Position numbers and translations under genes: made by a program. Of a stretch of 64,000 nucleotides of DNA, positions 13,271 to 61,580 are shown one piece after another. The notes beneath the pieces were generated by a model. That model had not been told where the DNA came from. It did no database searches and saw only the letters and a list, made by a program, of their open reading frames with translations. Numbering within the stretch: position 1 is the first letter of the stretch; each line of letters opens with the position of its first letter. This stretch comes from Candidatus Omnitrophota bacterium (GTDB taxonomy: Bacteria > Omnitrophota > Gorgyraeia > 2-02-FULL-51-18), in the NCBI GenBank assembly GCA_945877765.1, contig CAMDWQ010000001.1:22253-86252 (forward strand). The letters are read 5' to 3'.

Positions 13271-13496
13271 ACCAGCCTCCTTTGGTTCGACGCGCTTGGC
13301 TTGCTCACCATTCATCCTGAGCAAGGCCGAAGGCCGCGTCGAATGGACTTGTTTTGGGTTTAAACACACGAAAGCATTCGTGCTCTCACCCTACAGGACG
13401 ACAAAGAGGGTCTTTTTCGTCAAAAATTTATTAACATTTTTTTTCGATTAACATCAACGAGCGTCACTCCCAAACAGCCACACAGTGTCACCCATC

Positions 13497-13625
13497 CCGT
13501 CATTCCCGAAAGTTTTAATCGGGAATCAAACCTACCTGTCGTCATTCCCGAAGGCTTCAATCGGGAATCAAACCTATACATGATCCCTGATAATGGATCT
13601 CGGGGATGACATGGGGGGGTGTGGG
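13497..13625 (+). repeat. Dispersed dual-hairpin repeat element, copy A. The first hairpin unit is tandemly duplicated. It ends in a G7 tract.
   Basis: gtcattcccgaaRgYttYaatcgggaatcaaacct occurs twice in tandem at 13497-13533 and 13539-13576. The second hairpin follows: atgatccctgataatggatctcggggatgac, then atgggggggtgtgg. Both hairpins are palindromic, with stems ATTCCCGA/TCGGGAAT and ATCCCYGA/TCGGGGAT. The same element recurs at 16224-16297 (inverted) and 60837-60950. Confidence 0.8.
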
Positions 13626-36146: not shown

Positions 36147-39100
36147 TTAATACAAACGAAAATCAGCGGCCTGCTGAAAGCATGCCAAAAGGCGTTCACG
36201 GACCTTTTCCAGGCTCTCCGGCGAATAAACAAATTCGTGAGTTTGATTGAGTGTTGAAAAATAAAGCATCCCGCGGACGGGCGCCTCTCCGTAAAGCTCG
36301 CGAAATACAAAAGCGTACAAACCCAGCTGAAATTCATACTCCTGCGCTGTTTTTTTGGACTCAAGGGAGGTGATCTGGTTGGTTTTATAATCCAAGATCA
36401 CCCACTGCCCTGCCTCACGGTAGACTAAATCAATCTGGCCCTTCAGAATGCCGTGCGGTGTCTTAAAAATAAACGGAAGCTCCGGATGGCAGGCGGGTGA
36501 TTTTTTCACCGATGTTCCGAGAGGGCTTTTCCAGAAAGCCGCACTGCTCTCGCGGATCTCGTCTTTTTCAGCAGAGGTGAGTGGCGAAAGAATTTTCATC
36601 AAGAAATCCTCGCGAATGAAACCTCGCGGTGAGCCCAGCGTCATCATTTCCATCACGCGGTGATAGATCGTTCCATACTCATTTCGCGGCGACCTCTCGA
36701 GATCCTCGGGGTCGATGGTTTCTGGTTCTTCTAAATAAACCGGCGGTTTTGGCGACGCTTGCGCCAAAAGATCGCTCACGCTTAAATCGGTTGCCGCATC
36801 GTACGGCTTTTGAGGTAGGTGCAGGCGCTCAAGGATTTTTGCAACGTCCGGCATCACCGGCTCGACGGTTGTCACGGAAGGCTCACGTGACTCTCCGGAA
36901 ATGGACGAAGAGGAAAGCGCTTTCTCGCGGCCCAAAAGATTTAGCACGCGCTCCATCCAAGTGGCATTTTTATTCCCAGAGACGGTTTCACGAGGCGCTG
37001 CGCCACACAAGAGAAGATGTTCACGCGCGCGTGTGACCGCCACGTACAAAATGCGATCCTCTTCTTCCTCTTCTTTTTCATCCATGCGGTTGGCAGCGAC
37101 TTCATAGGCCTCATCGTTTAGTTTTTTACGTTCATCCAGAGGATCCTGCCAGGACCAGCCCAAACCTCCCTCGGTAGACGCGATCGCCAAGCCGCGGTCC
37201 TTAGGCTTTTTCTGACCTCCCAAGTTCGCGATCGCCACAACCGGAAACTCAAGGCCCTTCGCCGCGTGAATGCTTGACAGAAATACCGCGTCGCTTCCAT
37301 CGGTTGCGATTCGCGCTTCCTCCGTCTCATCTCTCTCGGCCATGCCTTTGGCGTAACGCACAAATTCGGCCGCATCCAAGGACATTTTTTCTTCCAGAGA
37401 ACGCGCGATCTCCACGAGTTTTCGCCCATTGGCGACGCGCTGAATCCCATCGGGACCAGCCAGAGCAAAACATTCGTAGTCGCTCCAGCGCAGTATTTTT
37501 TCCAAAATCGACGAAACGGTAAAACTGTTTTTGACGCTTCGTAAAGATTCTAAAAACTCTACAAATACCTGGACGCGGAGGCGGTCTTTTTCCGACAAGC
37601 CTTCCACCGTGGATAAATTATCGAGCGCACGTGAAAGCGACCGTCGCCGGGAATCATCTTTTTTGGCCGCGCGGGCCAGCCAAAAAAGACCGTCATCAGA
37701 AACGCTGGCCAGCGGCGAGCGAAGAGCCGCCGCCAAAGCAACGTCATCGTCCGGATGATCCAGAAGAGCCAGCAAAGACACCAGGTCCTTGATTTCTGTT
37801 TTTTCAAAAAAAGATTTCGATTTCGGAGAATAAAACGGGACGCCCAGGCGCGAGAGCGCACGCTCGTAAGTCTGCGCTTTTTTGGCGCTGCGCATCAGGA
37901 TCGCCACATCGCCCCATTTCATCGGCCGACCAGACAGAGTCCCGTCCTCAACACAAACACCTGAACGAACCAACGATAAAATGCGCTCGGCCAAAAGCCG
38001 GGCCTCATCCTCACGGCCCTCGTCAAGATCTTTCAATTTTTCGTCCGGGCCATAAAACGCGCAGAGAGGCTCGATAGTCCCCTTAACCTCAAGCAAGAAT
38101 TTTTTTCCGGGAACCAACGCCTTAAAAACACCATGGGCGTCTACCGCAAAAAAATGGTTCACAAAATCCAGCACCTCGAATCGAGAGCGGTAGTTCTCAT
38201 CCAGAGTTATTTTTTTTCCGGCCAAAGCCTCATAGTGCCCGAAAAGAGCAGGCTCGGCATGCCGAAACGCGTAGATCGATTGTTGCGGATCTCCCACGAG
38301 AAATAGGTTGTTCTTGCTCCTCAAAAGATCGATAAGCTTTGCCTGTAACGGGCTCGTATCCTGGAACTCATCCACCAATAGATGACAAAAACGATTCCGA
38401 TAACGCTCGCGGACCGCTTTTTTCGCGGGAGTCTCGCCTTTCAAAAGCTTCCACGCTAAGAGCGTCAGATCCTCGAAATCCAGCGCGGCCATTAATCTTT
38501 TTTCATTTTCATAGTTTTCCATAAATACGTGCATGATTTTCAAGAACTCTTCTTTAAAAGGAAAAAATAATTCCCCAAGCGCCGCCAGCTTCCAGGCACC
38601 GGCGTCTTTCCGGAAGGATTCGACCCACTCCTTGAAAGTCTCTGAGCCTCTTTTTTGAATGGAACGCTCGATCACCCGAAACGCCTCGAAATTCCGCCAG
38701 TCTAGAAATGCGGCGGAAAAAATTTTAGGGATATGTCTAGCGCCTTCAATAGCAGCAGCTTCATTGGCGGTTATTTTTTTATTCTTTCCGGCTATTTCTA
38801 TCACCTCAAGAAAAGCTTGGGAGATCTTCGCCTCTAGAGGTTTGCGGTCAAGACCGCTGCGGATCGTCAAAATATTTTCGTCTTCCCCGGTCGCGCGAAA
38901 ATGAGCATACAAACGCAGCGCCGCCAGGCGCACAGAGACTTCACCGCGCTCCGTCAGCATTTCCAGCGCCACAGCGCTATCGGCATGCGCCTCAAATGCG
39001 GCATCCAACGCTTTGGTCATCAAAATATCTGATTCAGCCTTGGATAAAACTTTGAAATATGGATCCACAGCAGCTTCGATTGGATTTTCACGCAAAAGCC

Positions 39101-39383
39101 TCGCGCAGAAGCCATGGATCGTGCCGATATAAGCCGTCTCGAGCGCCCGACGGTCCTCTTCGCGGCCGGCCTGAATGAATTCTTTTACCAGCTGGCGCTT
39201 CATGTGGTTGGCGGCCGGCTCAGTGAATGTCAACGCCAGAATTCGATCGGGCGCCTGCTTAAGATCGATGACCGCATACTTAAAGCGGTTCACGAGCACC
39301 GACGTTTTTCCTGAGCCTGCACCCGCGCTGACGCAGATATCGGCGCCAAACGATGCGGCCGCTTCCTGCTGCTTAGAATTCAT
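36147..39383 (-). CDS. addA: ATP-dependent helicase/nuclease AddA (UvrD/PcrA-like SF1 helicase with C-terminal RecB-type nuclease)
   Basis: 1078 aa. Walker A SAGAGSGKTSVLVNRF and SF1 motifs (LTFTEPAANHMKRQL, LLVDEFQDTSPLQ, GDPQQSIYAFRHA, RSR). The C-terminal PD-(D/E)xK nuclease has GQIDLVYREAGQWVILDYKTNQ. It overlaps addB by 11 nt. Confidence 0.85.
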   Translation of the reverse strand: MNSKQQEAAASFGADICVSAGAGSGKTSVLVNRFKYAVIDLKQAPDRILALTFTEPAANHMKRQLVKEFIQAGREEDRRALETAYIGTIHGFCARLLRENPIEAAVDPYFKVLSKAESDILMTKALDAAFEAHADSAVALEMLTERGEVSVRLAALRLYAHFRATGEDENILTIRSGLDRKPLEAKISQAFLEVIEIAGKNKKITANEAAAIEGARHIPKIFSAAFLDWRNFEAFRVIERSIQKRGSETFKEWVESFRKDAGAWKLAALGELFFPFKEEFLKIMHVFMENYENEKRLMAALDFEDLTLLAWKLLKGETPAKKAVRERYRNRFCHLLVDEFQDTSPLQAKLIDLLRSKNNLFLVGDPQQSIYAFRHAEPALFGHYEALAGKKITLDENYRSRFEVLDFVNHFFAVDAHGVFKALVPGKKFLLEVKGTIEPLCAFYGPDEKLKDLDEGREDEARLLAERILSLVRSGVCVEDGTLSGRPMKWGDVAILMRSAKKAQTYERALSRLGVPFYSPKSKSFFEKTEIKDLVSLLALLDHPDDDVALAAALRSPLASVSDDGLFWLARAAKKDDSRRRSLSRALDNLSTVEGLSEKDRLRVQVFVEFLESLRSVKNSFTVSSILEKILRWSDYECFALAGPDGIQRVANGRKLVEIARSLEEKMSLDAAEFVRYAKGMAERDETEEARIATDGSDAVFLSSIHAAKGLEFPVVAIANLGGQKKPKDRGLAIASTEGGLGWSWQDPLDERKKLNDEAYEVAANRMDEKEEEEEDRILYVAVTRAREHLLLCGAAPRETVSGNKNATWMERVLNLLGREKALSSSSISGESREPSVTTVEPVMPDVAKILERLHLPQKPYDAATDLSVSDLLAQASPKPPVYLEEPETIDPEDLERSPRNEYGTIYHRVMEMMTLGSPRGFIREDFLMKILSPLTSAEKDEIRESSAAFWKSPLGTSVKKSPACHPELPFIFKTPHGILKGQIDLVYREAGQWVILDYKTNQITSLESKKTAQEYEFQLGLYAFVFRELYGEAPVRGMLYFSTLNQTHEFVYSPESLEKVRERLLACFQQAADFRLY

Positions 39384-42375
39384 GGCCCCTCTTAGTTTCT
39401 ACGCGGCAAACCGCATCAAACTCGCAAAAAGTGCAGTCTTTCGGCTCCACAGCAATCTCGCCCGAACGAATCCGGCGCACCGCCAGCCGTACGCGCTCTT
39501 CGGTTTCATCCAGAAGCGTTTCGATCGCTTCCGGCGAAAGCTCGGGATTTTCCCGGCGTCCGCTTTTTAAAATACGATGTTCCAGGCCCGCCGGCTCAAG
39601 AGCCAAGAGACGGCGGATCGCTAGAAGATATAAAGGCAGTTGGATTTCTTCCCCGTTTTTAATTTTTTTTGCCAAGTTCCGGCTTGAGCGTTTGTAATCG
39701 ATCACCAGCGCTTTTTTTCCAGAGACATCCACATCCACTCGGTCGACGGAGCCGCGAATAAGAATCTCTCCGCTTTTATCAGACAGCCGCAGGTAGTCCG
39801 ATTTTCCTTTTCCAAAATCATATTCAAAATATTTTGGCCGCAGCTCACTCTCAGCTCCAAGCTCAAGCTTCACATATTTTTTCAGCATACGCCGCATCGA
39901 TTCACGCCAGGCAATCTGGCGGTAACGCGGCTGATCACGAAAAGGTCCGCCTTCAAAGTGGCGCAAAAATATTTTTTCAAGCTCCGTCTCCATGCGTTCG
40001 GGTTCCCGCAAATAGCGGCCCGAGGCGCGGTCTGTGGCAGAGAGATTCTCAAAATATTCACGCAACGTTTCATGCAAAAGTGTCCCCATCTGGGCATTTT
40101 CTCGCCCTTCGAGCGGCCCGTTCAATCCAAGCGCCTGCTCGGCAAAATAACGGAAGGGACAAAGCAGAAATGCCTCGAGCCCCGTCGCGCTAAACGGCAC
40201 AGCGGCCGAGGCCATTGCCTTGCGAACATCCGGATCTTTAAGACCCATCGTCTCTTGGGCTGCATACTCAACAGCCCTCTGTAGCATGGCCCGCGCTTTC
40301 CAACCCGTGGGCACAAGCTGTGCGAAATCATAGCGGGATCCTCCGCGAAAAAGAAGTGCTGCCAGGCCGCGTGCGACATCAGTTTCGGATTCCCACTCTT
40401 CCTGTTGGGGTAAAAAATTGGCAACGCCGCGCGTCTGCCGCTTCACGGTGTTTTCACCGAAACACGCCAGCACCTCCCCAATAAAAAAAGATTCAAGCGA
40501 CGGATTTCCATCGGAGTCATGCGTCGAATGCGTCAGGTAGAGTCTCTGCTTGGCGCGTGTAAGCGCCATGTAGAAAAAATAGCGCTCCCCCGACAAGCGC
40601 CAGGCGCGCTCATCTAGGACCGTGCCGCTGGCATTGATCACTCGTCTCTCGGCATCCTTAAATAGGGGGTCTTCGGTCACCGGCTGCGGAAATTTTTTTT
40701 CGACAAGATCGCATATAAACACAGCTTTATATTCTTTGGGCAGCGCCATCACCACATCGTATACCTGCACACGGTTACGACCACGAATCTTTGGGGAAAA
40801 AAGACTATTTTCGATCGCGGATAGAATCTCACGCGCGTATCGCGGCGGCTCAAACGGCGTGCCGGATTCCAAGTGTCTCTTGCGGCCCGTCATCAGAATC
40901 GATACCAGCGATCGCAAAGCCGCTTCATCAAGGGCCGAGCCGTCGTTGACCCTCAAGGAGGAAGCAAAAGACGTCGCCAACGCGCCAAAAACATGCGCGC
41001 TCGGTGCGGTTAGCAATTGATCTTCCAATTGAAGAAGCCAGTCGAGAAATTGACTGCCGGGTTTCGGTGTCTCGACGGACTGCGCCAGGCGTATCCAGTT
41101 TTCGCGGCCCTCGCGAATTCCTTCCCTTAAAGCCGCGCGTTCAAGCTCGAGTGAGTCCGCCAAGGGCAATCGCCCGCGCAAATAGCTGGATTTGGCTAGA
41201 TGCAGAACGTCCTCGCGTTTCCAGCCTTCGACGGCCAGCCGCAATAAGCGGTGAAACGAAACGGCCAAGCCGCTCTCCGAATATCGGCTTCTCTCATGAA
41301 TTTCTACCGGGACTTCATATTCGCCAAAAACGGTTTCGATCAACGCTTTTTGCCCGCTAACAGCGCGAAGAATCAAACAAATATCGCTGAAATGAAAGGA
41401 CTCTTCACGGTAAAGCCGGCGAATTTCCGCGGCAATCATCTCGTATTCGGTACGTAAAAAAGGGGCCGAGATCACGCTCAGAGGCGTTTCTTTTTCATAT
41501 TTTTCGGGACTTGGCGCAAATACACAACCAGCCAGGTGCCGCAATGCCGGATGGGAGGAGCGGTGATTTTCGGTAAAATCCGCCCTCTCTTTGAAGCCAA
41601 GGGCGGTCAGTGTACGACGAGTACGCTCAGGATAACTAAAAAGAACGGAGCCTGCCCGGTGCGCCTTATCCAGCGTGAGCGTCGCCACGGTATGCCCCGC
41701 CCAGCCAGCGACAAGCTTCAAGAGCTTTGTCTGGTAACGCGTGAAATGATAAAATCCATCAAAAATGACAAGCTCCGGCGCGCCGCCTGTCTCCTCAAAT
41801 GTCTCAAACGCCGCTAGGTCATCCTCCACTTCGGATAATCCAAGCTCCTTAAGCCGCGCGTCATACCGCTTGATCAACACCGAAAAATCCCTAAATTTTG
41901 ATCGAAAGACAGGATCTTTTAAAAGCGGCTGCGCGCGCTTTTCAAATTCAGCGACCGATAAAAGACCGGCTTTGAATTCGCGGATAGCCTCCAACGCTAA
42001 TTCTTGAAATCCACGTAGTTTCAGCGAATCGCGAAAATAACCATAAATGCTATCCCCTTTGTCATCTTGAGCTGACAAAACTTCCTCCAAAACCAAACGG
42101 CGGGTCGAGTCGGTGGGCCGCCCTCCGGCGGAGGCACGCAAAACACGGTCGGCCAGGTCAGCAATCGTGATAATGTGGGCATTAAACAAACCTGGTACAT
42201 CTTTTTTCAAGACTAAGCTCTGGATACGTTCCGCGTGCTCGCGGCTGGGCAGGATAAAAAAAGACCGGCTATCGATGCCGGCGCCTGACTTGGAAACTTG
42301 CTCACGGAAGAGATCGATGCAGTAAGTGGTTTTGCCAGTGCCGGGAGGCGACACAAGAAGCTCAAGCTTAGGCAT
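39373..42375 (-). CDS. addB: ATP-dependent helicase/nuclease AddB (RexB-like; C-terminal nuclease with Fe-S cluster cysteines)
   Basis: 1000 aa. N-terminal degenerate helicase with Walker A SPPGTGKTTYCI. The C-terminal nuclease has the four-Cys arrangement CPFRYFAEQ...CTFCEFDAVC characteristic of AddB. It lies immediately upstream of and overlapping addA. Confidence 0.8.
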   Translation of the reverse strand: MPKLELLVSPPGTGKTTYCIDLFREQVSKSGAGIDSRSFFILPSREHAERIQSLVLKKDVPGLFNAHIITIADLADRVLRASAGGRPTDSTRRLVLEEVLSAQDDKGDSIYGYFRDSLKLRGFQELALEAIREFKAGLLSVAEFEKRAQPLLKDPVFRSKFRDFSVLIKRYDARLKELGLSEVEDDLAAFETFEETGGAPELVIFDGFYHFTRYQTKLLKLVAGWAGHTVATLTLDKAHRAGSVLFSYPERTRRTLTALGFKERADFTENHRSSHPALRHLAGCVFAPSPEKYEKETPLSVISAPFLRTEYEMIAAEIRRLYREESFHFSDICLILRAVSGQKALIETVFGEYEVPVEIHERSRYSESGLAVSFHRLLRLAVEGWKREDVLHLAKSSYLRGRLPLADSLELERAALREGIREGRENWIRLAQSVETPKPGSQFLDWLLQLEDQLLTAPSAHVFGALATSFASSLRVNDGSALDEAALRSLVSILMTGRKRHLESGTPFEPPRYAREILSAIENSLFSPKIRGRNRVQVYDVVMALPKEYKAVFICDLVEKKFPQPVTEDPLFKDAERRVINASGTVLDERAWRLSGERYFFYMALTRAKQRLYLTHSTHDSDGNPSLESFFIGEVLACFGENTVKRQTRGVANFLPQQEEWESETDVARGLAALLFRGGSRYDFAQLVPTGWKARAMLQRAVEYAAQETMGLKDPDVRKAMASAAVPFSATGLEAFLLCPFRYFAEQALGLNGPLEGRENAQMGTLLHETLREYFENLSATDRASGRYLREPERMETELEKIFLRHFEGGPFRDQPRYRQIAWRESMRRMLKKYVKLELGAESELRPKYFEYDFGKGKSDYLRLSDKSGEILIRGSVDRVDVDVSGKKALVIDYKRSSRNLAKKIKNGEEIQLPLYLLAIRRLLALEPAGLEHRILKSGRRENPELSPEAIETLLDETEERVRLAVRRIRSGEIAVEPKDCTFCEFDAVCRVETKRGHEF

Positions 42376-42427: not shown

Positions 42428-42462
42428 CAAAAAAGAAGCCTTAAAAAAAGGCTTCTTTGGGA
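42428..42462 (-). terminator. Rho-independent terminator downstream of comFB, separating the signalling operon from addBA
   Basis: Minus-strand reading: aagaagcctt-ttttttt-aaggcttctt followed by ttttgttt, a 10-bp stem followed by a U-run. It lies 20-55 nt after the comFB stop. Confidence 0.6.
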
Positions 42463-42481: not shown

Positions 42482-42772
42482 TTACTTACGGGGGTGAGAC
42501 TTAACGATATCAATCGCCGCACGCAGTTCTCGCACGACATCTTTTTCAACCTTATCTTCCACAACAATTTTACGCACAAAATTTTTGCCAGTAGCACTGG
42601 TGACATACATAGGCCAGAGACGATTGAGCGCCAAAGCCTTAACATCTTCAATGGCATCGGCAGAAAGACGCGCACGGTCCTTGGCAAGCAAATCATCCAG
42701 GACGCTTCCGGCCAGCTCTTCCATATAATTAGTCAGGCGAGTATTTTTTTGTTTTTTAGCGTTGGCTAGCAT
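42482..42772 (-). CDS. comFB: ComFB family protein (late competence development protein ComFB-like; cysteine-less variant)
   Basis: 96 aa. NYMEELAGSVLDDLL...DVKALALNRLWPMYVTSATG fits the ComFB core (NY-EE-V...D-AL-LN-LPP-Y-). The Cys pairs found in Bacillus ComFB are absent. Confidence 0.6.
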   Translation of the reverse strand: MLANAKKQKNTRLTNYMEELAGSVLDDLLAKDRARLSADAIEDVKALALNRLWPMYVTSATGKNFVRKIVVEDKVEKDVVRELRAAIDIVKSHPRK

Positions 42773-42836: not shown

Positions 42837-44591
42837 TTAATTTTTCCAAGAGGTAAGAGCAACAGGAAAAGGCTCTCCTGGCCGGGCCAAGTAATACCCC
42901 TGCCCAAGATTGATGCCGCACATACGGGCCGCCTCACACTCTTCCCGGCTCTCAATCCCCTCCGCTACCGTGGTCGCGCCAATTCCTTTGGCAAATAAAA
43001 TTAGCGACATAAGAATCTGCTGTTTTGTTGTACTAACATCAATCTGACGAATCAATGAGCGGTCAAACTTAATGTAATCAGGCTTGAGTTGAGCAACATC
43101 CCTTAAACTTACTGCCCCGCCACCGACATCATCAATGGCAACCGAAACACCCTGCTCCTTAAGTTCTGCCAGCGCAACACGAATCTTATCAAATGAACGC
43201 AAAATGCTCTGTTCGGTAATCTCAATGACAATATTCTTAAAACCAATCGCCCCTTTGTCCTTAAAAAGCTTGCTCATTTCTGCACGATCCAGGAGCGTTT
43301 CATGATTAAGATTTAGAAATAACTTCAGGTTCTGCGCCATCGCTTGGGCTCGCTTCAGAGCAAACTCTACGCACATGCAATCCAGCTCTTTGACATGGTT
43401 CGTTTGCCGGGCCATCCCGAAAAGTGTGGAAGCTTCGTTGGACGGGTAATGAAGGATGGGTCTTGAAAGCGCTTCATAACCCACCACGCACTTCTGCTTA
43501 AAATCCACCAGCGGCTGATAAAGCGTCTGTATTTTTTTTTCTTTTAAAATCGCATAAAAAAAAGCCGCGTACTGATCGGGATTGGTGGTCGATCCGGGAA
43601 TAACCACGCTCTTCATATTTCCAGGAAAATGAACTTCGTGGGTATTTTCGGGGGTCGCTTTTACGGATTTTTTTTGAATCGGACGGTACAGCGAATAACA
43701 ACTCCCGGGCATCGTACGCATGGTTTTGGCAAGCTCCCCGGCGATACAGCTTATTTCTGACGCCTCCTTGAAACTAATTTTGGCGTTATCTACGACAGCC
43801 GCTGAAAGACTCATAATTGGAAACCGCTTGAGCTCACCCTCTGAGTTACGCTGCACTAGGTGACCGCGCTCACGATCCTCGGTATCATAGAAGCCTGCAA
43901 CCTCCGAGTCAAAATTTTGAATCACCGCTTCGCATAGGGGCACTGAACATTCCGGCGTTGTCAAAATAATAAAATCATCTCCCCCTAGATGGCCCAAAAA
44001 ATTCTTGGGCTCCCCATAAAGACGGATCGCTTTTTTTAGGATTTCACTGGTACGGATAATGATTTCATCGCCGCGAGAGTCGCCGTAGGCCTTATTAAAG
44101 GCGGCCAGGCCCGTCAGATCAATACAAACAACGGAGTATTTTTTTTTCGATTCAATCGCCTGCTCTAAACGTAGAATCGTGGAGCGCGTTCCTGGTAAAT
44201 GGGTAAGAGGATTGACATCCATCTCGTTAGAACTTTTTTTAAGAACTTGGCGAATAGATCCAGCCAGGAACTTAACGTCATTACTTTTTTCAAAAAAATC
44301 CTCAATCACCATCATTTCTTTAATTAAAAGCGTTTCCTTCTTCTCTAATACAAGCACAATTGGAATGTATTTGAGCACGATGTCTTGTTTGAAACTAAGA
44401 GCTAACTGTTTTCCCTTGAGTCCATCATGAGCTTCATCCACAACAATCAGATGGGGCACTTCATCAAATACTGCCTGAAGAATCCCTTCTTTTTTGGGAT
44501 TAAAAATCTCAAAAACCGTCTTGCCAAGATTTTTGACAAGCGATTTAAGCAGTCCCTTGTCGTCTGTGACGACCAAAATCTTAGTTTTCAT
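42837..44591 (-). CDS. REC - degenerate GGDEF - EAL protein (likely c-di-GMP phosphodiesterase with regulatory GGDEF)
   Basis: 584 aa. N-terminal receiver-like domain (KILVVTDD, LIVVDE). The GGDEF domain signature reads HLGGDDF (Arg to His and Glu to Asp replacements), so it is probably catalytically impaired. The EAL domain has GYEALSRP and DDVGGG, with the catalytic Glu present. Confidence 0.75.
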   Translation of the reverse strand: MKTKILVVTDDKGLLKSLVKNLGKTVFEIFNPKKEGILQAVFDEVPHLIVVDEAHDGLKGKQLALSFKQDIVLKYIPIVLVLEKKETLLIKEMMVIEDFFEKSNDVKFLAGSIRQVLKKSSNEMDVNPLTHLPGTRSTILRLEQAIESKKKYSVVCIDLTGLAAFNKAYGDSRGDEIIIRTSEILKKAIRLYGEPKNFLGHLGGDDFIILTTPECSVPLCEAVIQNFDSEVAGFYDTEDRERGHLVQRNSEGELKRFPIMSLSAAVVDNAKISFKEASEISCIAGELAKTMRTMPGSCYSLYRPIQKKSVKATPENTHEVHFPGNMKSVVIPGSTTNPDQYAAFFYAILKEKKIQTLYQPLVDFKQKCVVGYEALSRPILHYPSNEASTLFGMARQTNHVKELDCMCVEFALKRAQAMAQNLKLFLNLNHETLLDRAEMSKLFKDKGAIGFKNIVIEITEQSILRSFDKIRVALAELKEQGVSVAIDDVGGGAVSLRDVAQLKPDYIKFDRSLIRQIDVSTTKQQILMSLILFAKGIGATTVAEGIESREECEAARMCGINLGQGYYLARPGEPFPVALTSWKN

Positions 44592-46519
44592 ATCGCCTCA
44601 TCTATTTTTACAATAATCAATGTAATGTCATCATGTTGCTCGGCTTTCCCCATAAATTGATCGAGGTCCTCCACGACCCGCTTGGCAATATTTTCTGCCG
44701 TCTCTGAGCGTCCAATAGCCAGAACCTTCTGAAGTCTCTGCACATCGTATTCTTCCTTACGACGATTTCTTGCCTCGCTAACCCCATCCGAATAGAAAGC
44801 AAATGCATCGCCCGCATGGAGCGGATAGGTGGAATTAGCAAAGGCGACTCCCTCCATCACCCCAATGGGCATCCCCTCTTCGGCGCTCAGAAGCTGGCTA
44901 ACACCAGAAATACTCACAGCCGCTACCGGCAAGTGGCCTCCATTAGAAAGCATCATTTTTTTGTCCACTAGGTCAAATATCGCATAACTCATCGTCACAA
45001 ACAAGCCCCCCGTTGTTTCGGAGGCGATGGCATTGTTCACCTGCTCTAGAGCACCGGCTGGTTCCTGACGGTCACGCGCAGAAAACTTAAATTCAGAGAC
45101 TGTTTTTGCCATAAAAAGAGCAGCGGGAGTGCCCTTACCGGAAACATCGCCCACCATGACACCAATCTTGCCTTCGGGTGCTAGATTTACAAACGAGTAT
45201 AAATCGCCGCCAACAGCCTTGGCGGGTCTAAAATGCACAGCGATCGAGAGGCCTTTGACTTGCGGCATGGACTCAGGCAAAAAACTCTTTTGTATTTGGC
45301 TGGCAATTTTAAGCTCGCTTTCTATCAGCTCTCGTTTTTTCATTTCTAAAAGAACGCGTGAGAGCGTGGTGCTGGCATAGAGCGCCGCAAACACCACCAT
45401 TGGATAAAAAAGATCGATCCACCAACCCGCCGTGCAAAACAATATAACGGACACTACGGCAAAAAAGCTCATGACACTCAACGCGCCTAAAAGCGCTCGG
45501 GCAGGCTTAAAACCAGCGGAGATACGATTGATTAAAAAACCAACCAAAACTAGAAGCGCTAAATTAATCCCGCGGCTAGCTCGATGGATAAAATCCCTTT
45601 GAAGGATATCGTTTAAAATATTGGCATAGGAACCTACCATGGGATAAACCGATTGAATCGGTATCGGGCTGGTATCGTGCGAACCTTGTGACGTCAAACC
45701 CACGATACAAATTTTTCCTTTTAACAAATTCAAATCAATGCGGGGTTTCCGGCCCTCTGCCGCCTGAGCATAGGAATAAATAACGTCCAGATAGGAATAA
45801 TGCTGAAATGTCGTTTCCCAGGATCCGGCATAAGTGATGATAAAGCAGCTATCTTCATCTAAGGGAATACGGTGAGCGGGTGAAAGCTCAATGCATTGCC
45901 CCGGTTTGAATATTATGCTTTCCTCACCCTGGCCCACTAAATCGGCAGCCGCGCGAAAAGCTAATTGAAAATAATTTTTTCCTTCAAAGGAGATGACCGG
46001 TACCGTACGGCGTCGCTTACCGTCTATATCCGCCTTGGCATTCACGAATCCCACGCCTTTTGCCGCCTGCCGATACCCGGGCACAAGATCGGATTCTAAA
46101 CGCGTGGCTGTAAAAATATTTTTGCGGCGCTTAGGGTCTGCAAACGCGAAAGCAAAGTAAATATTTTGAGCTTTTTTGGCGGCATCAATCACCGCCTGAT
46201 CGTGCTCCCGCGGGTCGGCAAATAGAATATCAAATAGGACAGCTTTGGCACCGGACTGCTCAAGCACTTGAATTAAATTTGCATGATATTCGCGGTCAAA
46301 CGGCCAAGCACCCAGTTCTTTCAATGAATCATTCCATATATCAATCAGGATTATTTCGCTGCTTACAGGGCGAGGCCCGCGAAGTTGGCAGCGCCAATCA
46401 AAAGTCTGAAGCTCGTAAAGCTCAAAGCTGCGAAAATAAGACCCAAGCGCTGCCAATAGCAAGGCAAATACAACAAGGACATACCACGTATATTTTCTAG
46501 AAAACGACAGGAATCCCAA
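44588..46519 (-). CDS. CHASE2 sensor domain - PP2C/SpoIIE-type serine phosphatase (RsbU-like input phosphatase)
   Basis: 643 aa. N-terminal TM plus a periplasmic CHASE2-like region, then TM helices. The C-terminal PPM phosphatase has VGDVSGKG, LFVTMSYAIFD and YSDGVSEA. Its start overlaps the downstream REC-GGDEF-EAL gene by 4 nt. Confidence 0.75.
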   Translation of the reverse strand: MGFLSFSRKYTWYVLVVFALLLAALGSYFRSFELYELQTFDWRCQLRGPRPVSSEIILIDIWNDSLKELGAWPFDREYHANLIQVLEQSGAKAVLFDILFADPREHDQAVIDAAKKAQNIYFAFAFADPKRRKNIFTATRLESDLVPGYRQAAKGVGFVNAKADIDGKRRRTVPVISFEGKNYFQLAFRAAADLVGQGEESIIFKPGQCIELSPAHRIPLDEDSCFIITYAGSWETTFQHYSYLDVIYSYAQAAEGRKPRIDLNLLKGKICIVGLTSQGSHDTSPIPIQSVYPMVGSYANILNDILQRDFIHRASRGINLALLVLVGFLINRISAGFKPARALLGALSVMSFFAVVSVILFCTAGWWIDLFYPMVVFAALYASTTLSRVLLEMKKRELIESELKIASQIQKSFLPESMPQVKGLSIAVHFRPAKAVGGDLYSFVNLAPEGKIGVMVGDVSGKGTPAALFMAKTVSEFKFSARDRQEPAGALEQVNNAIASETTGGLFVTMSYAIFDLVDKKMMLSNGGHLPVAAVSISGVSQLLSAEEGMPIGVMEGVAFANSTYPLHAGDAFAFYSDGVSEARNRRKEEYDVQRLQKVLAIGRSETAENIAKRVVEDLDQFMGKAEQHDDITLIIVKIDEAI

Positions 46520-46541
46520 GGTGATTTAGGTTTTCTTTTGG

Positions 46542-47327
46542 CTAAGTTTTTTTGCCGGGTATAAAATTTTGTTTGGTGCTGGACGCGGCGATGGTTGTCT
46601 CTGCCGCCGAAAGCTCTGGGGTTTCCAGTTGGGTAGCAGCGAGTGATTTCTTGTGCGCTAAAAGCCGCTGGGCGCGCTCTCGATCCATCTCTTCCCGGCT
46701 CATTTCTTTTCCTTTGAGAAGCACTTTCCACGGATGGTGTTTGACGTCATCGCTAAAATCGCGGAAATTGCTGGAGGTTTCATCAAAATTTTCCATCATG
46801 CTGTTAATTCTGGGGCGGTTTTCGACCACAATCTCATCGACATGCTTGGCAACCAAACCGATATCCTGAGTTGTTTTGCTAATATCACCGGCAACTTTTT
46901 TTCCAATCTCCACCAATTCTTCCATGCGGAATGGTTCCGTACTTCCAATCGCATCCCCTTCTTTGGCGTATTCAGGAGAGGTCGTGCCTGATTTAATCTC
47001 GATATACTTTTCACCCATCAATCCGAAGGTAGATGCCATCGCAGAAGAATCGAGGCGGATATTAACCCCCTCCCGAATCCAAAGATCCAGTTCCACCAGC
47101 GTTTCCTGACCATACAAAAGACGGATATCCTTGACTTCCCCAACCTCGACTCCCGACAAACAGACGGGCGCGTGTTTTTTGACCCCTCCGGTATAGTGAA
47201 ATTGAGTTTTTAATAGATAACCTTTTTTGACCCAGGTAATCTTTCCTACGCGAATCGCCAGCGCGCCAAACGCGACAACGCAAACAACAACAAAAATACC
47301 CGTTTTGAGCTCATTACTTATTTTCAT
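46542..47327 (-). CDS. mlaD: MlaD-like MCE-domain protein (phospholipid ABC transport, periplasmic substrate-binding component)
   Basis: 261 aa. N-terminal TM anchor (IFVVVCVVAFGALAI), an MCE domain, and a C-terminal extension. Confidence 0.75.
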   Translation of the reverse strand: MKISNELKTGIFVVVCVVAFGALAIRVGKITWVKKGYLLKTQFHYTGGVKKHAPVCLSGVEVGEVKDIRLLYGQETLVELDLWIREGVNIRLDSSAMASTFGLMGEKYIEIKSGTTSPEYAKEGDAIGSTEPFRMEELVEIGKKVAGDISKTTQDIGLVAKHVDEIVVENRPRINSMMENFDETSSNFRDFSDDVKHHPWKVLLKGKEMSREEMDRERAQRLLAHKKSLAATQLETPELSAAETTIAASSTKQNFIPGKKT

Positions 47328-47361
47328 TCCCTCGCCCCTCCGGTTTAATCCTATAGAAAAA

Positions 47362-48186
47362 TTAAGACTGCTTCAACTCCGTTGTTAGTTGCTCCAAATA
47401 ATCATCACCCTTTTGCACAAACGATATCGGTCCCTCTGCTTCTCCGGTAATAAATTGTTCAACGATTGGATTTTTCGAGTTCCTTATCTCCTGGGGAGTC
47501 CCAATTTGAATGATGTTGCCCTCGTGCAACATGACGATACGATCCGCGATACGAAACACGCTATTCATGTCATGGGTGACCACGACCGACGTCATGTGAA
47601 GCTTCTTGGTCAAATCCATCGTTAACTTGTCGACGACACCGGTCATCACCGGGTCCAAGCCCGCCGTCGGCTCATCATAAAACACAATCGTCGGATCAAG
47701 GACGATCGCGCGCGCCAACCCTACCCTTTTTTTCATGCCGCCCGAAAGCTGTGAAGGCATCAGGTTCTCAAATCCGCGTAGGCCGACAAGCTCAAGCTTC
47801 ATTTTTACCACGATGCTGATAACGCTGTTGTCTAGCTTGGTGTGCTCGCGCAGCGGCAACGCAATATTCTCCCCTACCGATAGGGAATCAAATAAAGCGC
47901 CGGACTGAAAAAGCATGCCGAATTTTTTACGAATCTCATCCATCTGGTCTTCGCTGGCTTTGGCGATATTTTTCCCAAACATCCAAACCTCACCCGAATC
48001 AGGGCGAATAGACCCAATCAAATGCCGCAAAAAAGTACTTTTCCCACAACCCGAACCGCCCATGATGACTATCGTCTCTCCCTGAAAAATATCCAAGGAG
48101 ACATCATTAAGAATACGGCGCGAACCAAAATTTTTAATTACATTCTTGACGCTGATGACGATTTCTTTTTTTTGGGGTGTGGTCAT
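47362..48186 (-). CDS. mlaF: MlaF-like ABC transporter ATP-binding protein
   Basis: 274 aa. Walker A GGSGCGKST, Q-loop, ABC signature LSGGMKKRVGLARA, Walker B IVFYDEPTAGLD and the H-loop. Confidence 0.85.
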   Translation of the reverse strand: MTTPQKKEIVISVKNVIKNFGSRRILNDVSLDIFQGETIVIMGGSGCGKSTFLRHLIGSIRPDSGEVWMFGKNIAKASEDQMDEIRKKFGMLFQSGALFDSLSVGENIALPLREHTKLDNSVISIVVKMKLELVGLRGFENLMPSQLSGGMKKRVGLARAIVLDPTIVFYDEPTAGLDPVMTGVVDKLTMDLTKKLHMTSVVVTHDMNSVFRIADRIVMLHEGNIIQIGTPQEIRNSKNPIVEQFITGEAEGPISFVQKGDDYLEQLTTELKQS

Positions 48187-48983
48187 GACTTGGCGAAGTA
48201 GAAAATGAGGGTTAAGACCGCATCCGCTAGAATGATAAGAATGAACGAGGTGACTACACTCTGAGTGGTGGATCGCCCGACTCCCTCAGCCCCACCCTCT
48301 GTAGAAATGCCTTTGTGACAAGCGATCAAGGAAATGATCATGCTAAAAACCGCGCTTTTAAGCAGCCCTGTGTTGATGTCTTTTAATGTTAAAAAGCGAA
48401 TCGTTGTATCAAAGTAGAGGCCTGGAGTAATGTGAAGCTGGGTCGTACCGATAAGGTACCCGCCATACATACCGACAATATTTCCTAAGATCACAAGACA
48501 CGGAAGCATAAATAGAAGCGCTAAAAAACGGGGCGCCACCAAATACCGTACGGGATTGAGGCTTAGCGTTTCCAATGCCTCCATCTGCTCGGTAACTTTC
48601 ATCGTCGCAAGCTCAGCCGTGATCGCCGCTCCCACACGACCCGCGATGACAAGCGATGTCAGAACCGGGCCTATTTCACGCGTCATTGAAACAGCCACAA
48701 GTGCCGCGACATAAATAGTGGCCCCCATTTGCTCTAGCTGATAGGCCGATTGCATCGCAAGAACCATGCCGATAAAAAGATTCACAAAGAACACAATCAC
48801 CATCGAATCCAGTCCCGCAAAAACAGTTTGCGCAAAAAAACTTTTGCGTGAAACTGCTTTTTTCTTAAAAGGACCGGCAAAAATCCAATACAACGTCTGA
48901 AAGAAAAGCTTTATAACCAGAGCGGTTTCTTTGAGAAGTGAGAGAGTGCCGCCCCCAATGGATTCAAAAAGGGAGAGGTTCAT
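48183..48983 (-). CDS. mlaE: MlaE-like ABC transporter permease
   Basis: 266 aa polytopic permease of the MlaE/YrbE family. It overlaps mlaF by 4 nt. Confidence 0.8.
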   Translation of the reverse strand: MNLSLFESIGGGTLSLLKETALVIKLFFQTLYWIFAGPFKKKAVSRKSFFAQTVFAGLDSMVIVFFVNLFIGMVLAMQSAYQLEQMGATIYVAALVAVSMTREIGPVLTSLVIAGRVGAAITAELATMKVTEQMEALETLSLNPVRYLVAPRFLALLFMLPCLVILGNIVGMYGGYLIGTTQLHITPGLYFDTTIRFLTLKDINTGLLKSAVFSMIISLIACHKGISTEGGAEGVGRSTTQSVVTSFILIILADAVLTLIFYFAKS

Positions 48984-49306
48984 TTAATTTTTGCGATGGC
49001 CTCGTCTTGAGCGGCAAAAATTGAAAAAAGCTTATCCAATTTTGTAATTTCAAAAAGGCTCTTCACTTTTTCAGACATACCCGCCAGGCCTAAAGCACCT
49101 CCCTGAGAACGTGTTTTTTTGAGAATCTCAACGAGCGTTGCCAGTCCTGAGCTGTCGATATACGATACTTTTTCAAGATTGACGACAATTTTTTTAGAAG
49201 AGATTTTCTCAAAATGATTTTTTAGGGCAGGGGAGGTGCTAATATTAATCTCGCCATTGACCTGAAATACCGCGATTTCTTCGATTTGTAGAACCTTTAC
49301 ATCCAT
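48980..49306 (-). CDS. STAS-domain anti-sigma-factor antagonist (SpoIIAA/RsbV-like; also occupies the MlaB position)
   Basis: 108 aa. The conserved phosphorylatable-serine motif YIDSSGLATLVEIL (DSSG). It overlaps mlaE by 4 nt. Confidence 0.75.
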   Translation of the reverse strand: MDVKVLQIEEIAVFQVNGEINISTSPALKNHFEKISSKKIVVNLEKVSYIDSSGLATLVEILKKTRSQGGALGLAGMSEKVKSLFEITKLDKLFSIFAAQDEAIAKIK

Positions 49307-49343
49307 AAAATCTCCCCCTTTTTAAGAAATAAAAACGTTTATT

Positions 49344-49817
49344 TTAAAGCGGTCCTTGAATCGATTTTTCCATCCTAATGGAATTCCCTTTGGCATTAAA
49401 CTGAACGCTATCCATCAATTGATAAATAAGATATATCCCGCGCCCGCCGCCCTTGAAAAGATTGTCCTGGTGCGTGCAATCGCTTAAATTAGCCGCCTTA
49501 AAACCCTTCCCGCGGTCCTCAAGATTTAACCATATTTTTTTTTCATTGAAACCGGCCTCCAGCGATACCGGAATCTCTTTCTTTAGGCAATTTCCGTACT
49601 TCATCGCGTTAATCAATGCCTCTTCCAGGCACAGACGGATATCAAAACGGTACGCATCGCTTAGTCCCAACGGCTTAAAAAAAGACAAAACTCGACTGCT
49701 CGTCTTTTGGACTTCAGATAAGCTACTTGGCACTAGCCATTTTTTTACGGCTGCGCTTTTTTTCGCTTTTGACAAAAATTTTTTCAATGGTTTCAAGCTG
49801 TGCCTCCTGGTACACAC
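49344..49817 (-). CDS. Anti-sigma regulatory factor, Ser/Thr protein kinase of the HATPase_c (RsbW/SpoIIAB) type
   Basis: 157 aa as given. N-box LCLEEALINAMKYGN, G1 box DRGKGF and G2 box GGRGIYLI. The annotated ATG overlaps accA by 95 nt, so the real start is probably a downstream GTG/TTG. Confidence 0.65.
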   Translation of the reverse strand: MCTRRHSLKPLKKFLSKAKKSAAVKKWLVPSSLSEVQKTSSRVLSFFKPLGLSDAYRFDIRLCLEEALINAMKYGNCLKKEIPVSLEAGFNEKKIWLNLEDRGKGFKAANLSDCTHQDNLFKGGGRGIYLIYQLMDSVQFNAKGNSIRMEKSIQGPL

Positions 49818-50754
49818 CGATGGTACGAAACTTCTGATAGCGCGCTTCTACAAGATCGCGACCACCTATCCCTTCAAGCTCTTTCAAATATTGATGGATC
49901 GCTTGACGCGTGGTTTCGGTAATTTCCTGAAAATTTTTATGCGCTCCCCCCAAAGGCTCTTTAACGATGCCATCAATCAGTTTCATCTCCAAGAGGTCCT
50001 TGGCGGTAAGCTTTAGAGCGGCGGCAGCCTCCGGCGCCTTCGTGCGATCTTTCCAAAGAATCGCGGCGCATCCTTCGGGTGAGATAACAGAATAATAGGC
50101 GTTTTCCATGACCAGCACGCGATCACCGACTCCAATTCCCAAAGCACCGCCGGAACCTCCCTCGCCAATAACACAAACAATGATCGGTACTTCGATGCGC
50201 GCCATCTCGCGAATATTGACGGCAATCGTGTAAGCCTGCCCACGCTCTTCGGCGCCAATGCCCGGATAAGCGCCAGGCGTATCCACAAAAGCGATGATGG
50301 GCAGTCCAAATTTTTGGGCCATATACATTAGACGAAGCGCCTTACGATAACCCTCCGGGTGAGCGCTTCCAAAATTCCTCATAATATTTTCTTTAGCGTC
50401 GCGACCTTTTTGGTGCCCCATCACTAAGCATGGCCGGCCTTCAAAGAGAGCAAACCCGCCAACCAGCGCCTTGTCATCCGCAAACGTCCGGTCCCCGTGA
50501 AATTCAACAAAATCGGTAAAAATCCCCTGAATATAATCTAGGGTATACGGGCGTCGAGGGTGTCTTGCAATTTGAACGCGCTGCCAAGGTGTTAGATTGT
50601 GGTAGATCTCTTTTTTGGCGACTTCAAGCCGTGATTCGAGCTTCTTAACCTCTGAGTCCAGATTCAAACTGCCGTCCGCAGAAAGGTTTTTTAGCTCCGC
50701 GATTTTCTTTTCAAGCTCAAGAATTGGTTTTTCAAAATCCAAGGCAATCATCAT
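49723..50754 (-). CDS. accA: Acetyl-CoA carboxylase carboxyltransferase subunit alpha
   Basis: 343 aa. RHPRRPYTLDYI, GRPCLVMGHQKGRD, FGLPIIAFVDTPGAYPGIGAEERGQ, IGEGGSGGALGIGVGD. It carries a Lys/Arg-rich C-terminal tail extension. Confidence 0.9.
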   Translation of the reverse strand: MMIALDFEKPILELEKKIAELKNLSADGSLNLDSEVKKLESRLEVAKKEIYHNLTPWQRVQIARHPRRPYTLDYIQGIFTDFVEFHGDRTFADDKALVGGFALFEGRPCLVMGHQKGRDAKENIMRNFGSAHPEGYRKALRLMYMAQKFGLPIIAFVDTPGAYPGIGAEERGQAYTIAVNIREMARIEVPIIVCVIGEGGSGGALGIGVGDRVLVMENAYYSVISPEGCAAILWKDRTKAPEAAAALKLTAKDLLEMKLIDGIVKEPLGGAHKNFQEITETTRQAIHQYLKELEGIGGRDLVEARYQKFRTIGVYQEAQLETIEKIFVKSEKKRSRKKMASAK

Positions 50755-51880: not shown

Positions 51881-51972
51881 ATTTAAAAAATTGTTTATCT
51901 CCGAAGATTGGTCATATTATATAAATTTTGCTTAATCCCGGCAAGGAGATTACCGTAATCTATTTTTTTATA

Positions 51973-60701: not shown

Positions 60702-60836
60702 AGGGCCCTCCCTCAGTAAGAACTACAAATTTTAACCAAGTATACTTAAGTTACATTTATAATACTAAAATACTATCTGATTGTCAACTTAAATAGGCAA
60801 TTTATGGCAAAATTTAGCAGAATGAAAGATAAGTGT

Positions 60837-60950
60837 CCCCTTGTCATTCCCGAATTGTTTGATCGGGAATCAAACCTTAAAGTTAGACATGATCCCCGAT
60901 TAGAGATCTCGGGGATGACGCTGGGGGGGTGTTCGTGGATGACGCTGGAC
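60837..60950 (+). repeat. Dispersed dual-hairpin repeat element, copy C
   Basis: ccccttgtcattcccgaattgtttgatcgggaatcaaacctt...catgatccccgattagagatctcggggatgacgctgggggggtg. Same orientation and same G7 tail as copy A. It lies in the intergenic gap between gpmA and the TM-helix-repeat protein. Confidence 0.8.
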
Positions 60951-60965
60951 GGATTATGGCGAGAG

Positions 60966-61580
60966 TTAAGCGATTTCTTTTTTAGAAACAATGTTCATGT
61001 TTGAATCGAAAACGTAGATTCTCGGCACAGCCGTCCCTAAATTAAGTTCAAGGACTTGCTCCTTGGTCAACTTTTCTATTTCCATGACGATCGACCGCAG
61101 GCTATTGCCATGGGCGGCCACAATGACGTTATTACCGCCTTTCAAGTCGCGCACAATGTTGTTGTTAAAATACGGCAGGGTCCGAGCGGCGGTATCCTTA
61201 AGACTCTCCCCATTGGGCGGTGCAATATCGTAGGACCTTCTCCATATCTTAACTTGCTCGTCTCCAAACTTTTTGGCAGTCTCAGCCTTATCCAGACCCT
61301 GAAGATCTCCGTAATGTCTCTCGTTAAGCGCTTGATCTTTTTGGATGGGGATGTTCTGCTGGCCAAGCTTTTCAAGAATAGATGCTAACGTTTCCTGAGC
61401 ACGTTTAAGTAAAGAGGTGTAGGCTAAATCAAACCGAATATTTTCTTTCTTTAGCTTCTCCCCCGCCGCGGCGGCTTCTTCGATGCCTAAGGGGCTAAGC
61501 GGCACGTCCACCCATCCGGTAAAACGGTTTTCAAGATTCCACTGCGACTGCCCATGACGAACCAAAACGAGTATCGACAT
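60966..61580 (-). CDS. gpmA: 2,3-bisphosphoglycerate-dependent phosphoglycerate mutase (short-form dPGM)
   Basis: 204 aa. LVRHGQSQWN (catalytic His), RFTGWVD, ERHYGDLQG, AHGNSLR. Confidence 0.85.
   Translation of the reverse strand: MSILVLVRHGQSQWNLENRFTGWVDVPLSPLGIEEAAAAGEKLKKENIRFDLAYTSLLKRAQETLASILEKLGQQNIPIQKDQALNERHYGDLQGLDKAETAKKFGDEQVKIWRRSYDIAPPNGESLKDTAARTLPYFNNNIVRDLKGGNNVIVAAHGNSLRSIVMEIEKLTKEQVLELNLGTAVPRIYVFDSNMNIVSKKEIA

Follow-up and report, generated by a model that had tools for sequence, protein, structure and literature searches.

A kinase-STAS-phosphatase module encoded with mlaEFD in Omnitrophota as a candidate partner switch for a lipid ABC transporter

A 64,000-nucleotide (nt) stretch of a Candidatus Omnitrophota bacterium (assembly GCA_945877765.1, contig CAMDWQ010000001.1, positions 22,253 to 86,252; hereafter the window) encodes on its minus strand an RsbW/SpoIIAB-like serine kinase, an antagonist-type STAS protein and a CHASE2-PP2C sensor phosphatase in one gene string with mlaE, mlaF and mlaD, the genes of a lipid ATP-binding cassette (ABC) transporter. 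The unit kinase-STAS-MlaE is conserved across two phyla of the Planctomycetes-Verrucomicrobia-Chlamydiae (PVC) group. We favour a partner-switching relay dedicated to MlaEFD, in which the unphosphorylated STAS protein would act on MlaF as MlaB does, and give this reading an even chance of being right. More tentatively, at slightly under an even chance, we propose that a kinase-phosphatase pair toggles a lipid ABC transporter by phosphorylation of a STAS protein whose partner is the ATPase or the permease, that this arrangement is ancient in the PVC group (Omnitrophota, Phycisphaerae) and that it would supply the enzymology for the hypothesis of phosphoregulation at Thr52 of MlaB.

The Kinase, STAS Protein and Phosphatase

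Domains were called from an open reading frame (ORF) listing with Pfam and NCBIfam profile searches of the window proteins. These searches bear out the initial annotation of seven minus-strand genes (accA, kinase, STAS, mlaE, mlaF, mlaD and CHASE2-PP2C) in both position and domain content (Table 1). The STAS protein also has the intact DSSG motif that had been described (residues 51-54, within YIDSSG). Its Ser52 (codon 49151..49153) is the candidate phospho-acceptor; in the alignment it falls on Ser58, the residue that is phosphorylated in B. subtilis SpoIIAA. Y[VIM]DSSG is retained in 80 of 80 orthologs, and loss of the serine, which had been named as a sign against phosphoregulation, was seen in none of them.

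The initial annotation had further taken the STAS protein for a MlaB-like subunit sitting where MlaB would be, and here the comparisons point elsewhere. The protein groups firmly with anti-sigma antagonists: it scores 81 bits with the anti-sigma antagonist model TIGR00377 (cutoff 53) and 42.8 bits with the NCBIfam MlaB model NF033618, below the cutoff of 90. A profile built from 25 family members and searched against PDB sequences gave full-length matches to T. maritima TM1442 (1e-19), RsbV (2e-13) and SpoIIAA (2e-12), and a partial match to E. coli MlaB over residues 39-87 (6e-6), MlaB chains in the PDB aligning only within residues 39-89. MlaB is a minimal STAS protein of four strands and three helices without b5 and a4 (Kolich et al., PMC7367683). 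The AlphaFold2 model of the window protein (predicted local distance difference test, pLDDT, 87) has the topology b1-b2-a1-b3-a2-b4-a3-b5-a4, with b5 predicted at residues 95-97 and a4 at 100-107. When this model was compared using Foldseek, antagonist structures ranked first with template modelling (TM) scores of 0.85-0.93, the superpositions on SpoIIAA and RsbV gave TM 0.82-0.90, and MlaB appeared only from rank 38 (TMq 0.58-0.65). As to position, mlaB is the last gene of proteobacterial mlaFEDCB, whereas the STAS gene precedes mlaE here.

The kinase has an N-box (EEALINAMKYGN), a G1 motif (DRGKGF) and a G2 motif (GGGRG), read from the translation and kept in orthologs. Since its scores with the NCBIfam equivalog models of RsbW and SpoIIAB are weak and far below cutoff, it is not an ortholog of either. 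Three starts are candidates: that of the longest ORF at 49817, a GTG at 49733, giving 129 amino acids (aa), and the gene callers' start at 49688 (114 aa). We favour the GTG at 49733, because the ortholog alignment shows a conserved N-terminus that begins VPSSLSEVQK and resembles the start of SpoIIAB. This start would overlap the accA stop by 11 nt. The N-terminal segment VPSSLSEVQKTSS is likewise kept in orthologs. The top PDB match of the kinase, over its C-terminal 70 residues, was 9QIH_A, a chain of 304 aa named 'SenB' (3.7e-8), with RsbW at 5e-4. The SenB literature found concerns an unrelated selenium glycosyltransferase, a selenoneine enzyme.

The phosphatase has the layout of a CHASE2 transmembrane sensor: a transmembrane segment, a periplasmic CHASE2 domain (residues 20-325), three further transmembrane segments and a cytoplasmic PP2C domain (448-639), with the hydrophobic segments flanking CHASE2 read from the translation. 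For metal binding, the PP2C domain has the motifs GDVSGKG, SDGV and DDIT, which orthologs keep as GDVSGKG, [ST]DG and DD[IM]T. By their motifs, an intact kinase-STAS-phosphatase triad that is predicted to be catalytically competent is supported.

The MlaEFD Transporter

MlaE, a MlaF-type ATPase and a MlaD with MCE domain are clustered, as in a MlaEFD core. The best PDB matches of MlaF are MlaF chains (7e-76), and its alignment with MlaF of A. baumannii, P. aeruginosa and E. coli runs on through the C-terminal extension. The last helix of this extension puts Tyr261, Leu265 and Leu266 of the E. coli protein into the groove between MlaF and MlaB. The corresponding motif reads GPISFVQKGDDYLEQL here and GPVPFHYPARDYRADL in the solved MlaF chains, and every ortholog retains the motif, including the Tyr and the Leu. 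The extension was considered as a marker of a MlaB-like partner and rejected: it is not diagnostic, since MlaF of V. parvula has one without MlaB (PMC10665443). MlaD ends in a tail of ~130 aa with no beta-barrel. No MlaC or MlaA domain was found in the window ORFs scanned by profile, so a six-component MlaA-F system is not seen here; this agrees with the MlaEFD-only systems that are typical of most phyla (PMC10665443).

Conservation in Omnitrophota-Type Relatives

A one-genome-per-species scan with the STAS family alignment yielded at least 555 loci. The best 80 are titled Candidatus Omnitrophota, 'uncultured Planctomycetia' metagenome-assembled genomes (MAGs) or, in one case, Eisenbacteria. 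Window proteins were mapped to the loci by tblastn, and adjacencies were counted over 79 distinct species-level loci. The identical STAS protein lies on 14 contigs, including one of the MAG assembly GCA_947444795.1, with the same gene order. This order proved strongly conserved: the kinase gene lies immediately before the STAS gene in 77/78 loci and mlaE immediately after it in 74/75, followed by mlaF (67/68) and mlaD (68/68), and all 45 loci with at least 5.5 kb of flank have a CHASE2-PP2C gene no more than 4 kb after mlaD. accA is found upstream of the kinase at 64 of 70 loci. The STAS gene of the window is translationally coupled to mlaE by a 4-nt overlap (from the ORF coordinates). Sharing an operon with the genes of MlaF, MlaE and MlaD is a trait that the protein has in common with MlaB.

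The phosphatase gene directly follows mlaD in 27 of the 45 loci, and one to three genes intervene in 18. Inserts sampled in seven of these 18 loci encode FecR-domain proteins immediately upstream of the CHASE2 gene, in one case also a putative BBP2_2 beta-barrel porin. Such FecR/BBP2_2 inserts between mlaD and CHASE2-PP2C occur at loci L011, L013, L041, L043, L047, L072 and others; the window has none. Since Burkholderia and Pseudomonas are known to pair FecR genes with CHASE2 genes (PMC5192318), the inserts belong with the sensor, and the FecR proteins together with the outer-membrane barrel may form a trans-envelope input for CHASE2. After the PP2C gene, the 54 loci with enough flank have a REC/GGDEF/EAL gene (22), a GAF-HD-GYP gene (8), a TPR-barrel gene (3) or others (21).

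Adjacency alone is weak evidence, because closer relatives share synteny over the entire DUF212-AddB stretch. The string kinase-STAS-mlaEFD is unbroken also where the flanks differ.

The Core Beyond Omnitrophota

A STAS protein 39% identical to that of the window falls in a cluster that includes NCBI members labelled Phycisphaeraceae/Phycisphaerae (Planctomycetota). On four marine contigs it belongs to a four-gene operon that encodes a 146-aa protein, a 161-aa kinase, the 117-aa STAS protein and a 277-aa MlaE. All three junctions are 4-nt overlaps and the strand switches after MlaE. The flanks are unrelated to those in Omnitrophota, with guaA and dnaA upstream and Metallophos and DprA genes on the opposite strand downstream. 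The 146-aa protein (L097-L100, 9082-9522; L094, 367-807; L093, 2-640) has no Pfam match. By eye it resembles a lipoprotein with HEAT-like repeats, and in L093 the homologous region ends the upstream gene. A second contig, of 65% guanine-plus-cytosine (GC) content, has a STAS gene overlapping mlaE with no adjoining kinase.

In addition, kinase and STAS protein are fused on low-GC contigs into single proteins of 246-257 aa (P0138, P0141, P0197, P0285), with the kinase N-terminal and the STAS domain C-terminal. At loci L088, L089 and L101 such fusions occupy the same place, before mlaE, and one is followed by mlaE, mlaF, mlaD and two PilZ genes. The best 150 of 40,311 STAS representatives included no STAS-MlaE fusion of suitable length; STAS_2-MlaE fusions are mentioned in PMC5016091. 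Not all distant STAS relatives are linked to Mla: P0194, on a contig of 69% GC, belongs to a tandem STAS pair that has an ECF-type sigma fragment nearby but lacks Mla genes. Because the core outlasts its flanks, the fusions keep their position and the arrangement recurs in Phycisphaerae, we consider the link to Mla functional rather than a result of synteny inertia.

Proposed Mechanism and Alternative Explanations

By default, the kinase would hold the STAS protein phosphorylated at Ser52. CHASE2 would sense an envelope cue and activate the PP2C domain, which would dephosphorylate the STAS protein; the FecR-like periplasmic proteins and outer-membrane barrel encoded upstream of the sensor in many relatives may assist. 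Unphosphorylated STAS protein would then use its alpha1-alpha3 face, in the manner of E. coli MlaB, to bind MlaF at the helical subdomain (or to engage MlaE) and would stabilise the MlaF dimer on MlaE, so that lipid transport is switched on. Rephosphorylation would place a charge in the middle of the interface and release the STAS protein. In this way it would be the STAS protein that alternates between kinase and transporter, instead of the kinase alternating between STAS protein and sigma factor. We infer all these protein contacts. In MlaB it is the helical face, centred on Thr52, that contacts MlaF; the phosphomimetic exchange T52E makes this binding weaker, and ATPase activity is lost with T52A (PMC7367683, PMC5016091). 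Phosphoregulation of MlaB was hypothesised by both Thong et al. and Kolich et al., with no kinase named (PMC5016091, PMC7367683). Failing the MlaB family tests leaves MlaB-like behaviour of the STAS protein compatible with the data. Its modelled b5-a4 need not clash with MlaF, because in SpoIIAA-type proteins this element packs opposite the MlaF-binding helices a1-a3 (PMC7367683).

Rate covariation among the genes gave a mixed picture. In distance-matrix partial correlations, CHASE2-PP2C, a control within one polypeptide, reached 0.66, followed by STAS-MlaF as the strongest edge (0.39), with kinase-MlaE at 0.30. Over 22 independent sister pairs STAS-MlaF gave r=0.39 (p=0.07).

Several observations weigh against a dedicated Mla switch, and some of them favour a classical switch with a distant target. 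In that case the kinase would be an anti-sigma or anti-X factor, the STAS protein would only antagonise the kinase without ever contacting the transporter, and the mla genes would be co-transcribed for a shared envelope role. Firstly, by sequence and predicted fold the STAS protein is a canonical anti-sigma-factor antagonist and not a member of the MlaB family, and in the ortholog alignment the kinase retains a complete SpoIIAB-like N-terminal region; both are thus of the canonical SpoIIAA/SpoIIAB type, as a classical switch would have it. Secondly, a larger test with 28 sister pairs and six families gave r=-0.15 for STAS-MlaF, and MlaE, MlaF and MlaD co-varied at 0.55-0.69 in a module that excludes the STAS protein. 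Taken as a whole, covariation counts for neither side, with a slight lean against the STAS protein as a tightly co-evolving structural subunit. Thirdly, at locus L036 (5473-8053) CHASE2-PP2C comes straight after kinase-STAS, and mlaEFD is cleanly missing. Three further loci, L028, L079 and L085, have no PP2C gene within 1.8-5.4 kb of downstream sequence, and in L028 (897-5494) kinase-STAS-mlaEFD is followed directly by GGDEF/EAL. The Phycisphaerae core, moreover, is tied to MlaE and not to MlaF. Lastly, in most phyla MlaEFD functions without any MlaB, so that most such systems need no STAS subunit, and the MlaF of V. parvula, with a shorter C-terminal extension, has no MlaB either (PMC10665443).

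Precedent for a module without its sigma factor exists within the PVC group. Chlamydiae have Rsb modules without sigB, the target of which is debated. Against a classical switch, no Sigma70-family domain was detected in the ~45 window ORFs scanned, which upholds the initial annotation on the lack of a cognate sigma factor in the window, and no Sigma70-domain gene was present in the sampled flanks of relatives. A distant target would also leave unexplained why kinase-STAS-MlaE stay translationally coupled in Phycisphaerae amid unrelated flanks, with one small extra gene, and why the fusions keep their place before mlaE. We judge a classical switch unlikely.

The direction of control could also be reversed, with the transporter as the sensor, a 'trigger transporter'. 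MlaE or MlaF would report lipid flux or occupancy by sequestering or releasing the STAS protein or the kinase, and the output would be another process, for instance transcription or c-di-GMP (cyclic di-guanosine monophosphate) turnover, which corresponds to the moonlighting between Mla and a sigma factor suggested in the initial annotation. This would suit the Phycisphaerae module, which is coupled to MlaE alone and has no adjacent phosphatase sensor, and the recurrence of c-di-GMP genes downstream of the module (EAL at 22/54 loci, GAF-HD-GYP at 8/54 and, behind the fusion variant, two PilZ genes). Control of c-di-GMP enzymes by STAS proteins has known examples, among them HsbA-HsbD of Pseudomonas. 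However, the Omnitrophota already possess a dedicated periplasmic input in CHASE2, often accompanied by FecR, and 24 of the 54 loci have no c-di-GMP genes after PP2C. We regard a sensing transporter as rather improbable.

The kinase itself might be the effector: free kinase would inhibit or phosphorylate MlaF or MlaE, and unphosphorylated STAS protein would capture the kinase. Such a scheme has the same genetic linkage to Mla as the favoured relay, preserves the classical switch logic and fits with the kinase::STAS fusions, which hold both proteins at the transporter locus. Although the distance matrices did show a kinase-MlaE correlation, covariation of the kinase with MlaE, MlaF and MlaD is weak or absent and non-significant in independent contrasts. 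There is also no precedent for an RsbW-type kinase binding an ABC transporter subunit, whereas MlaB-MlaF provides a solved one for a STAS protein on a nucleotide-binding domain (PMC7367683). We hold an effector kinase to be improbable as such; counted together with the STAS protein as MlaB analogue, the models in which the switch controls Mla are somewhat more likely than not.

Coincidental adjacency, preserved by slow rearrangement within one phylum, would account for the part that is simply inherited, such as the DUF212-to-AddB block in closer relatives, but it is very improbable and nearly refuted by the Phycisphaerae-type operon, where the 4-nt overlap of STAS and mlaE recurs. The core has withstood genes inserted between mlaD and PP2C, altered downstream flanks and fusion of its own genes, and it is also found in another phylum and context.

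Gene String and Neighbouring Genes

Table 1. Features of the kinase-STAS-mlaEFD-phosphatase region, in window coordinates.
Feature	Coordinates	Strand	Support
accA (acetyl-CoA carboxylase carboxyltransferase alpha)	49723..50754	minus	ACCA 2e-146; equivalog above cutoff
RsbW/SpoIIAB-like serine kinase (HATPase_c_2), ~129 aa, start uncertain	49344..49733	minus	Pfam 5e-21
SpoIIAA/RsbV-type STAS protein, 108 aa	48980..49306	minus	PF01740 3e-22
MlaE permease	48183..48983	minus	PF02405 7e-79; TIGR00056 above cutoff
MlaF ABC ATPase with MlaF-type C-terminal extension	47362..48186	minus	best NCBIfam match MlaF PRK11831, 1e-79
MlaD, transmembrane segment and MCE domain	46542..47327	minus	PF02470 1e-14; TIGR04430 partial
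CHASE2 and SpoIIE-type PP2C sensor phosphatase, 643 aa	44588..46519	minus	CHASE2 6e-45; SpoIIE 4e-46
REC-like/degenerate GGDEF (GGDDF)/EAL protein	42837..44591	minus	EAL 7e-48; GGDEF partial 2e-10
Terminator-like hairpin, 11-bp stem and T-run, 3' of ComFB	42432..42458	minus	terminator scan
Promoter-like TTGCCG-17-TATAAT, upstream of DUF212	51916..51944	minus	promoter scan, 10/12 match

The seven genes had been described as a likely operon in which most genes have 4-nt overlaps. Such overlaps occur at only two of the six junctions (STAS/mlaE and mlaE/mlaF), the remaining gaps being 22-37 nt, and a third overlap of 4 nt, between the PP2C gene and the following EAL gene, lies outside the seven-gene set. 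The tight spacing stands, but the extent does not, since the string runs further on both sides: accA is preceded by genes for a DUF212 protein and a LysM-YkuD L,D-transpeptidase, and the EAL gene is followed by ComFB. The tight string thus comprises DUF212, YkuD, accA, kinase, STAS, mlaEFD, PP2C, REC-like/GGDEF/EAL and ComFB, from ~51.9 kb to the hairpin at 42458..42432. This hairpin is likely the 3' end of the transcription unit, although this is a weak inference because the site counts of the promoter and terminator scan of the window were not above shuffled expectation. The TTGCCG-17-TATAAT site is a possible 5' end.

The REC-like/GGDDF/EAL protein is probably a c-di-GMP phosphodiesterase, judging from its domains. 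Its match to a PhoB-type REC domain (residues 1-124, NCBIfam) is weak, and the gene is accessory, found only in closer relatives. c-di-GMP genes cluster around the module: this gene and ComFB (42482-42772) follow the phosphatase gene in the window, and other c-di-GMP genes occur at L048, L063 and L101. There are reports of ComFB proteins acting as receptors for cyclic dinucleotides. Elsewhere in the window are a GAF-HD_5 gene adjoining a stand-alone REC gene and a separate GGDEF gene (7597-9222, 21198-22028).

A giant ORF of 3,422 aa lies on the minus strand of the window (24808-35076). The tandem repeats within it, in the interval 30630 to 32820, are ~74-80% identical, and the only domains recognised, PEP-utilizers (residues 2208-2312) and PPDK_N (residues 2892-3042), fall in its C-terminal third. 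Two short, spurious-looking ORFs on the minus strand (13420-13650 and 60773-60991) encode similar peptides, ..RFDSRLK.SGMT.. and ..RFDSRSNNSGMTRG.., which suggests copies of a short intergenic repeat element. Genes for DNA uptake and recombination are also present, encoding a ComM-like Mg-chelatase ATPase, ComEC (Competence and metallo-beta-lactamase domains), AddA/AddB and the ComFB mentioned above (11077-12618, 16318-18633, 36147-42375 and 42482-42772).

Comparison with Known Systems and Significance

The module shares its three protein families with the SpoIIAA-SpoIIAB-SpoIIE and RsbV-RsbW-RsbU systems of Bacillus, and its phosphatase is membrane-anchored like SpoIIE. It has a STAS protein with a phosphorylatable Ser, an adjoining GHKL kinase and a PP2C phosphatase; the remaining hallmark of a partner switch, a sigma factor or known target within the module, was not found in the window ORFs or the sampled flanks. 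In contrast to Bacillus, the kinase gene precedes the STAS gene, no sigma gene follows the kinase, mlaEFD comes next, and the phosphatase has a periplasmic CHASE2 input. With MlaFEDB of E. coli and A. baumannii it has in common the operon linkage of a STAS gene to mlaF, mlaE and mlaD, a Ser/Thr where MlaB has Thr52, and the MlaF extension. It differs in that the STAS protein is of the antagonist type and encoded before mlaE instead of last, that no mlaC or mlaA was found in the ORFs scanned, and that the system comes with its own kinase and phosphatase, as no described Mla system does.

Partner switches with a target other than a sigma factor lie inside the regulated locus in Vibrio (SypE-SypA), Bordetella (BtrU-BtrW-BtrV) and Pseudomonas (HsbR-HsbA), where they govern polysaccharide synthesis, type III secretion, and flagellar or c-di-GMP control, respectively. 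As in the window, a phosphorylatable STAS protein has a non-sigma output and the regulators are embedded in the target cluster; to our knowledge none of them involves an ABC transporter or lipid trafficking. RsbU-RsbV-RsbW of Chlamydia, also a PVC lineage, resembles the Omnitrophota module in having a membrane PP2C with a periplasmic sensor and no sigB, and we know of no Mla linkage for it. The FecR-CHASE2 pairs of Burkholderia and Pseudomonas (PMC5192318) are mirrored in the relatives with inserts, whereas the window is without FecR genes, and the output here is a PP2C phosphatase instead of a histidine kinase.

A survey of Mla genes in 1,083 genomes by Grasekamp et al. concluded that MlaB is sparse and mostly proteobacterial (PMC10665443). 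For two genomes of Omnitrophica (KJJ84113.1, KPK42235.1), its Supplementary Dataset 1 has a STAS protein beside mlaE, mlaF and mlaD under 'MlaB_Cluster', an assignment by synteny, and among the candidate phyla in the part of the table covered only Omnitrophica has a MlaB_Cluster entry. A text search of the main text of that paper did not find 'anti-sigma'. Full-text searches, whose coverage leaves out most subscription journals, found no literature combining partner switching or Rsb with Mla. What would be new is a partner switch with a transporter in the sigma factor's place, that is, a Mla system with a phosphorylatable, antagonist-type STAS protein and its own kinase and phosphatase.

Should the switch control transcription instead, the locus would be no more than a common Rsb-like module within an operon for the envelope. 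As a natural system that wires a STAS protein, a kinase and a periplasm-sensing phosphatase to mlaEFD, phylum-wide and in reduced form in a second phylum, the locus opens the phosphoregulation hypothesis for E. coli MlaB Thr52 to a direct test that needs four or five recombinant proteins. If control of Mla is true, ABC transporters would join the outputs of partner switches, CHASE2, which has no known ligand, would gain a physiological context in envelope lipid homeostasis, and the module would be a pointer to what Rsb modules without a sigma factor act on elsewhere in the PVC group.

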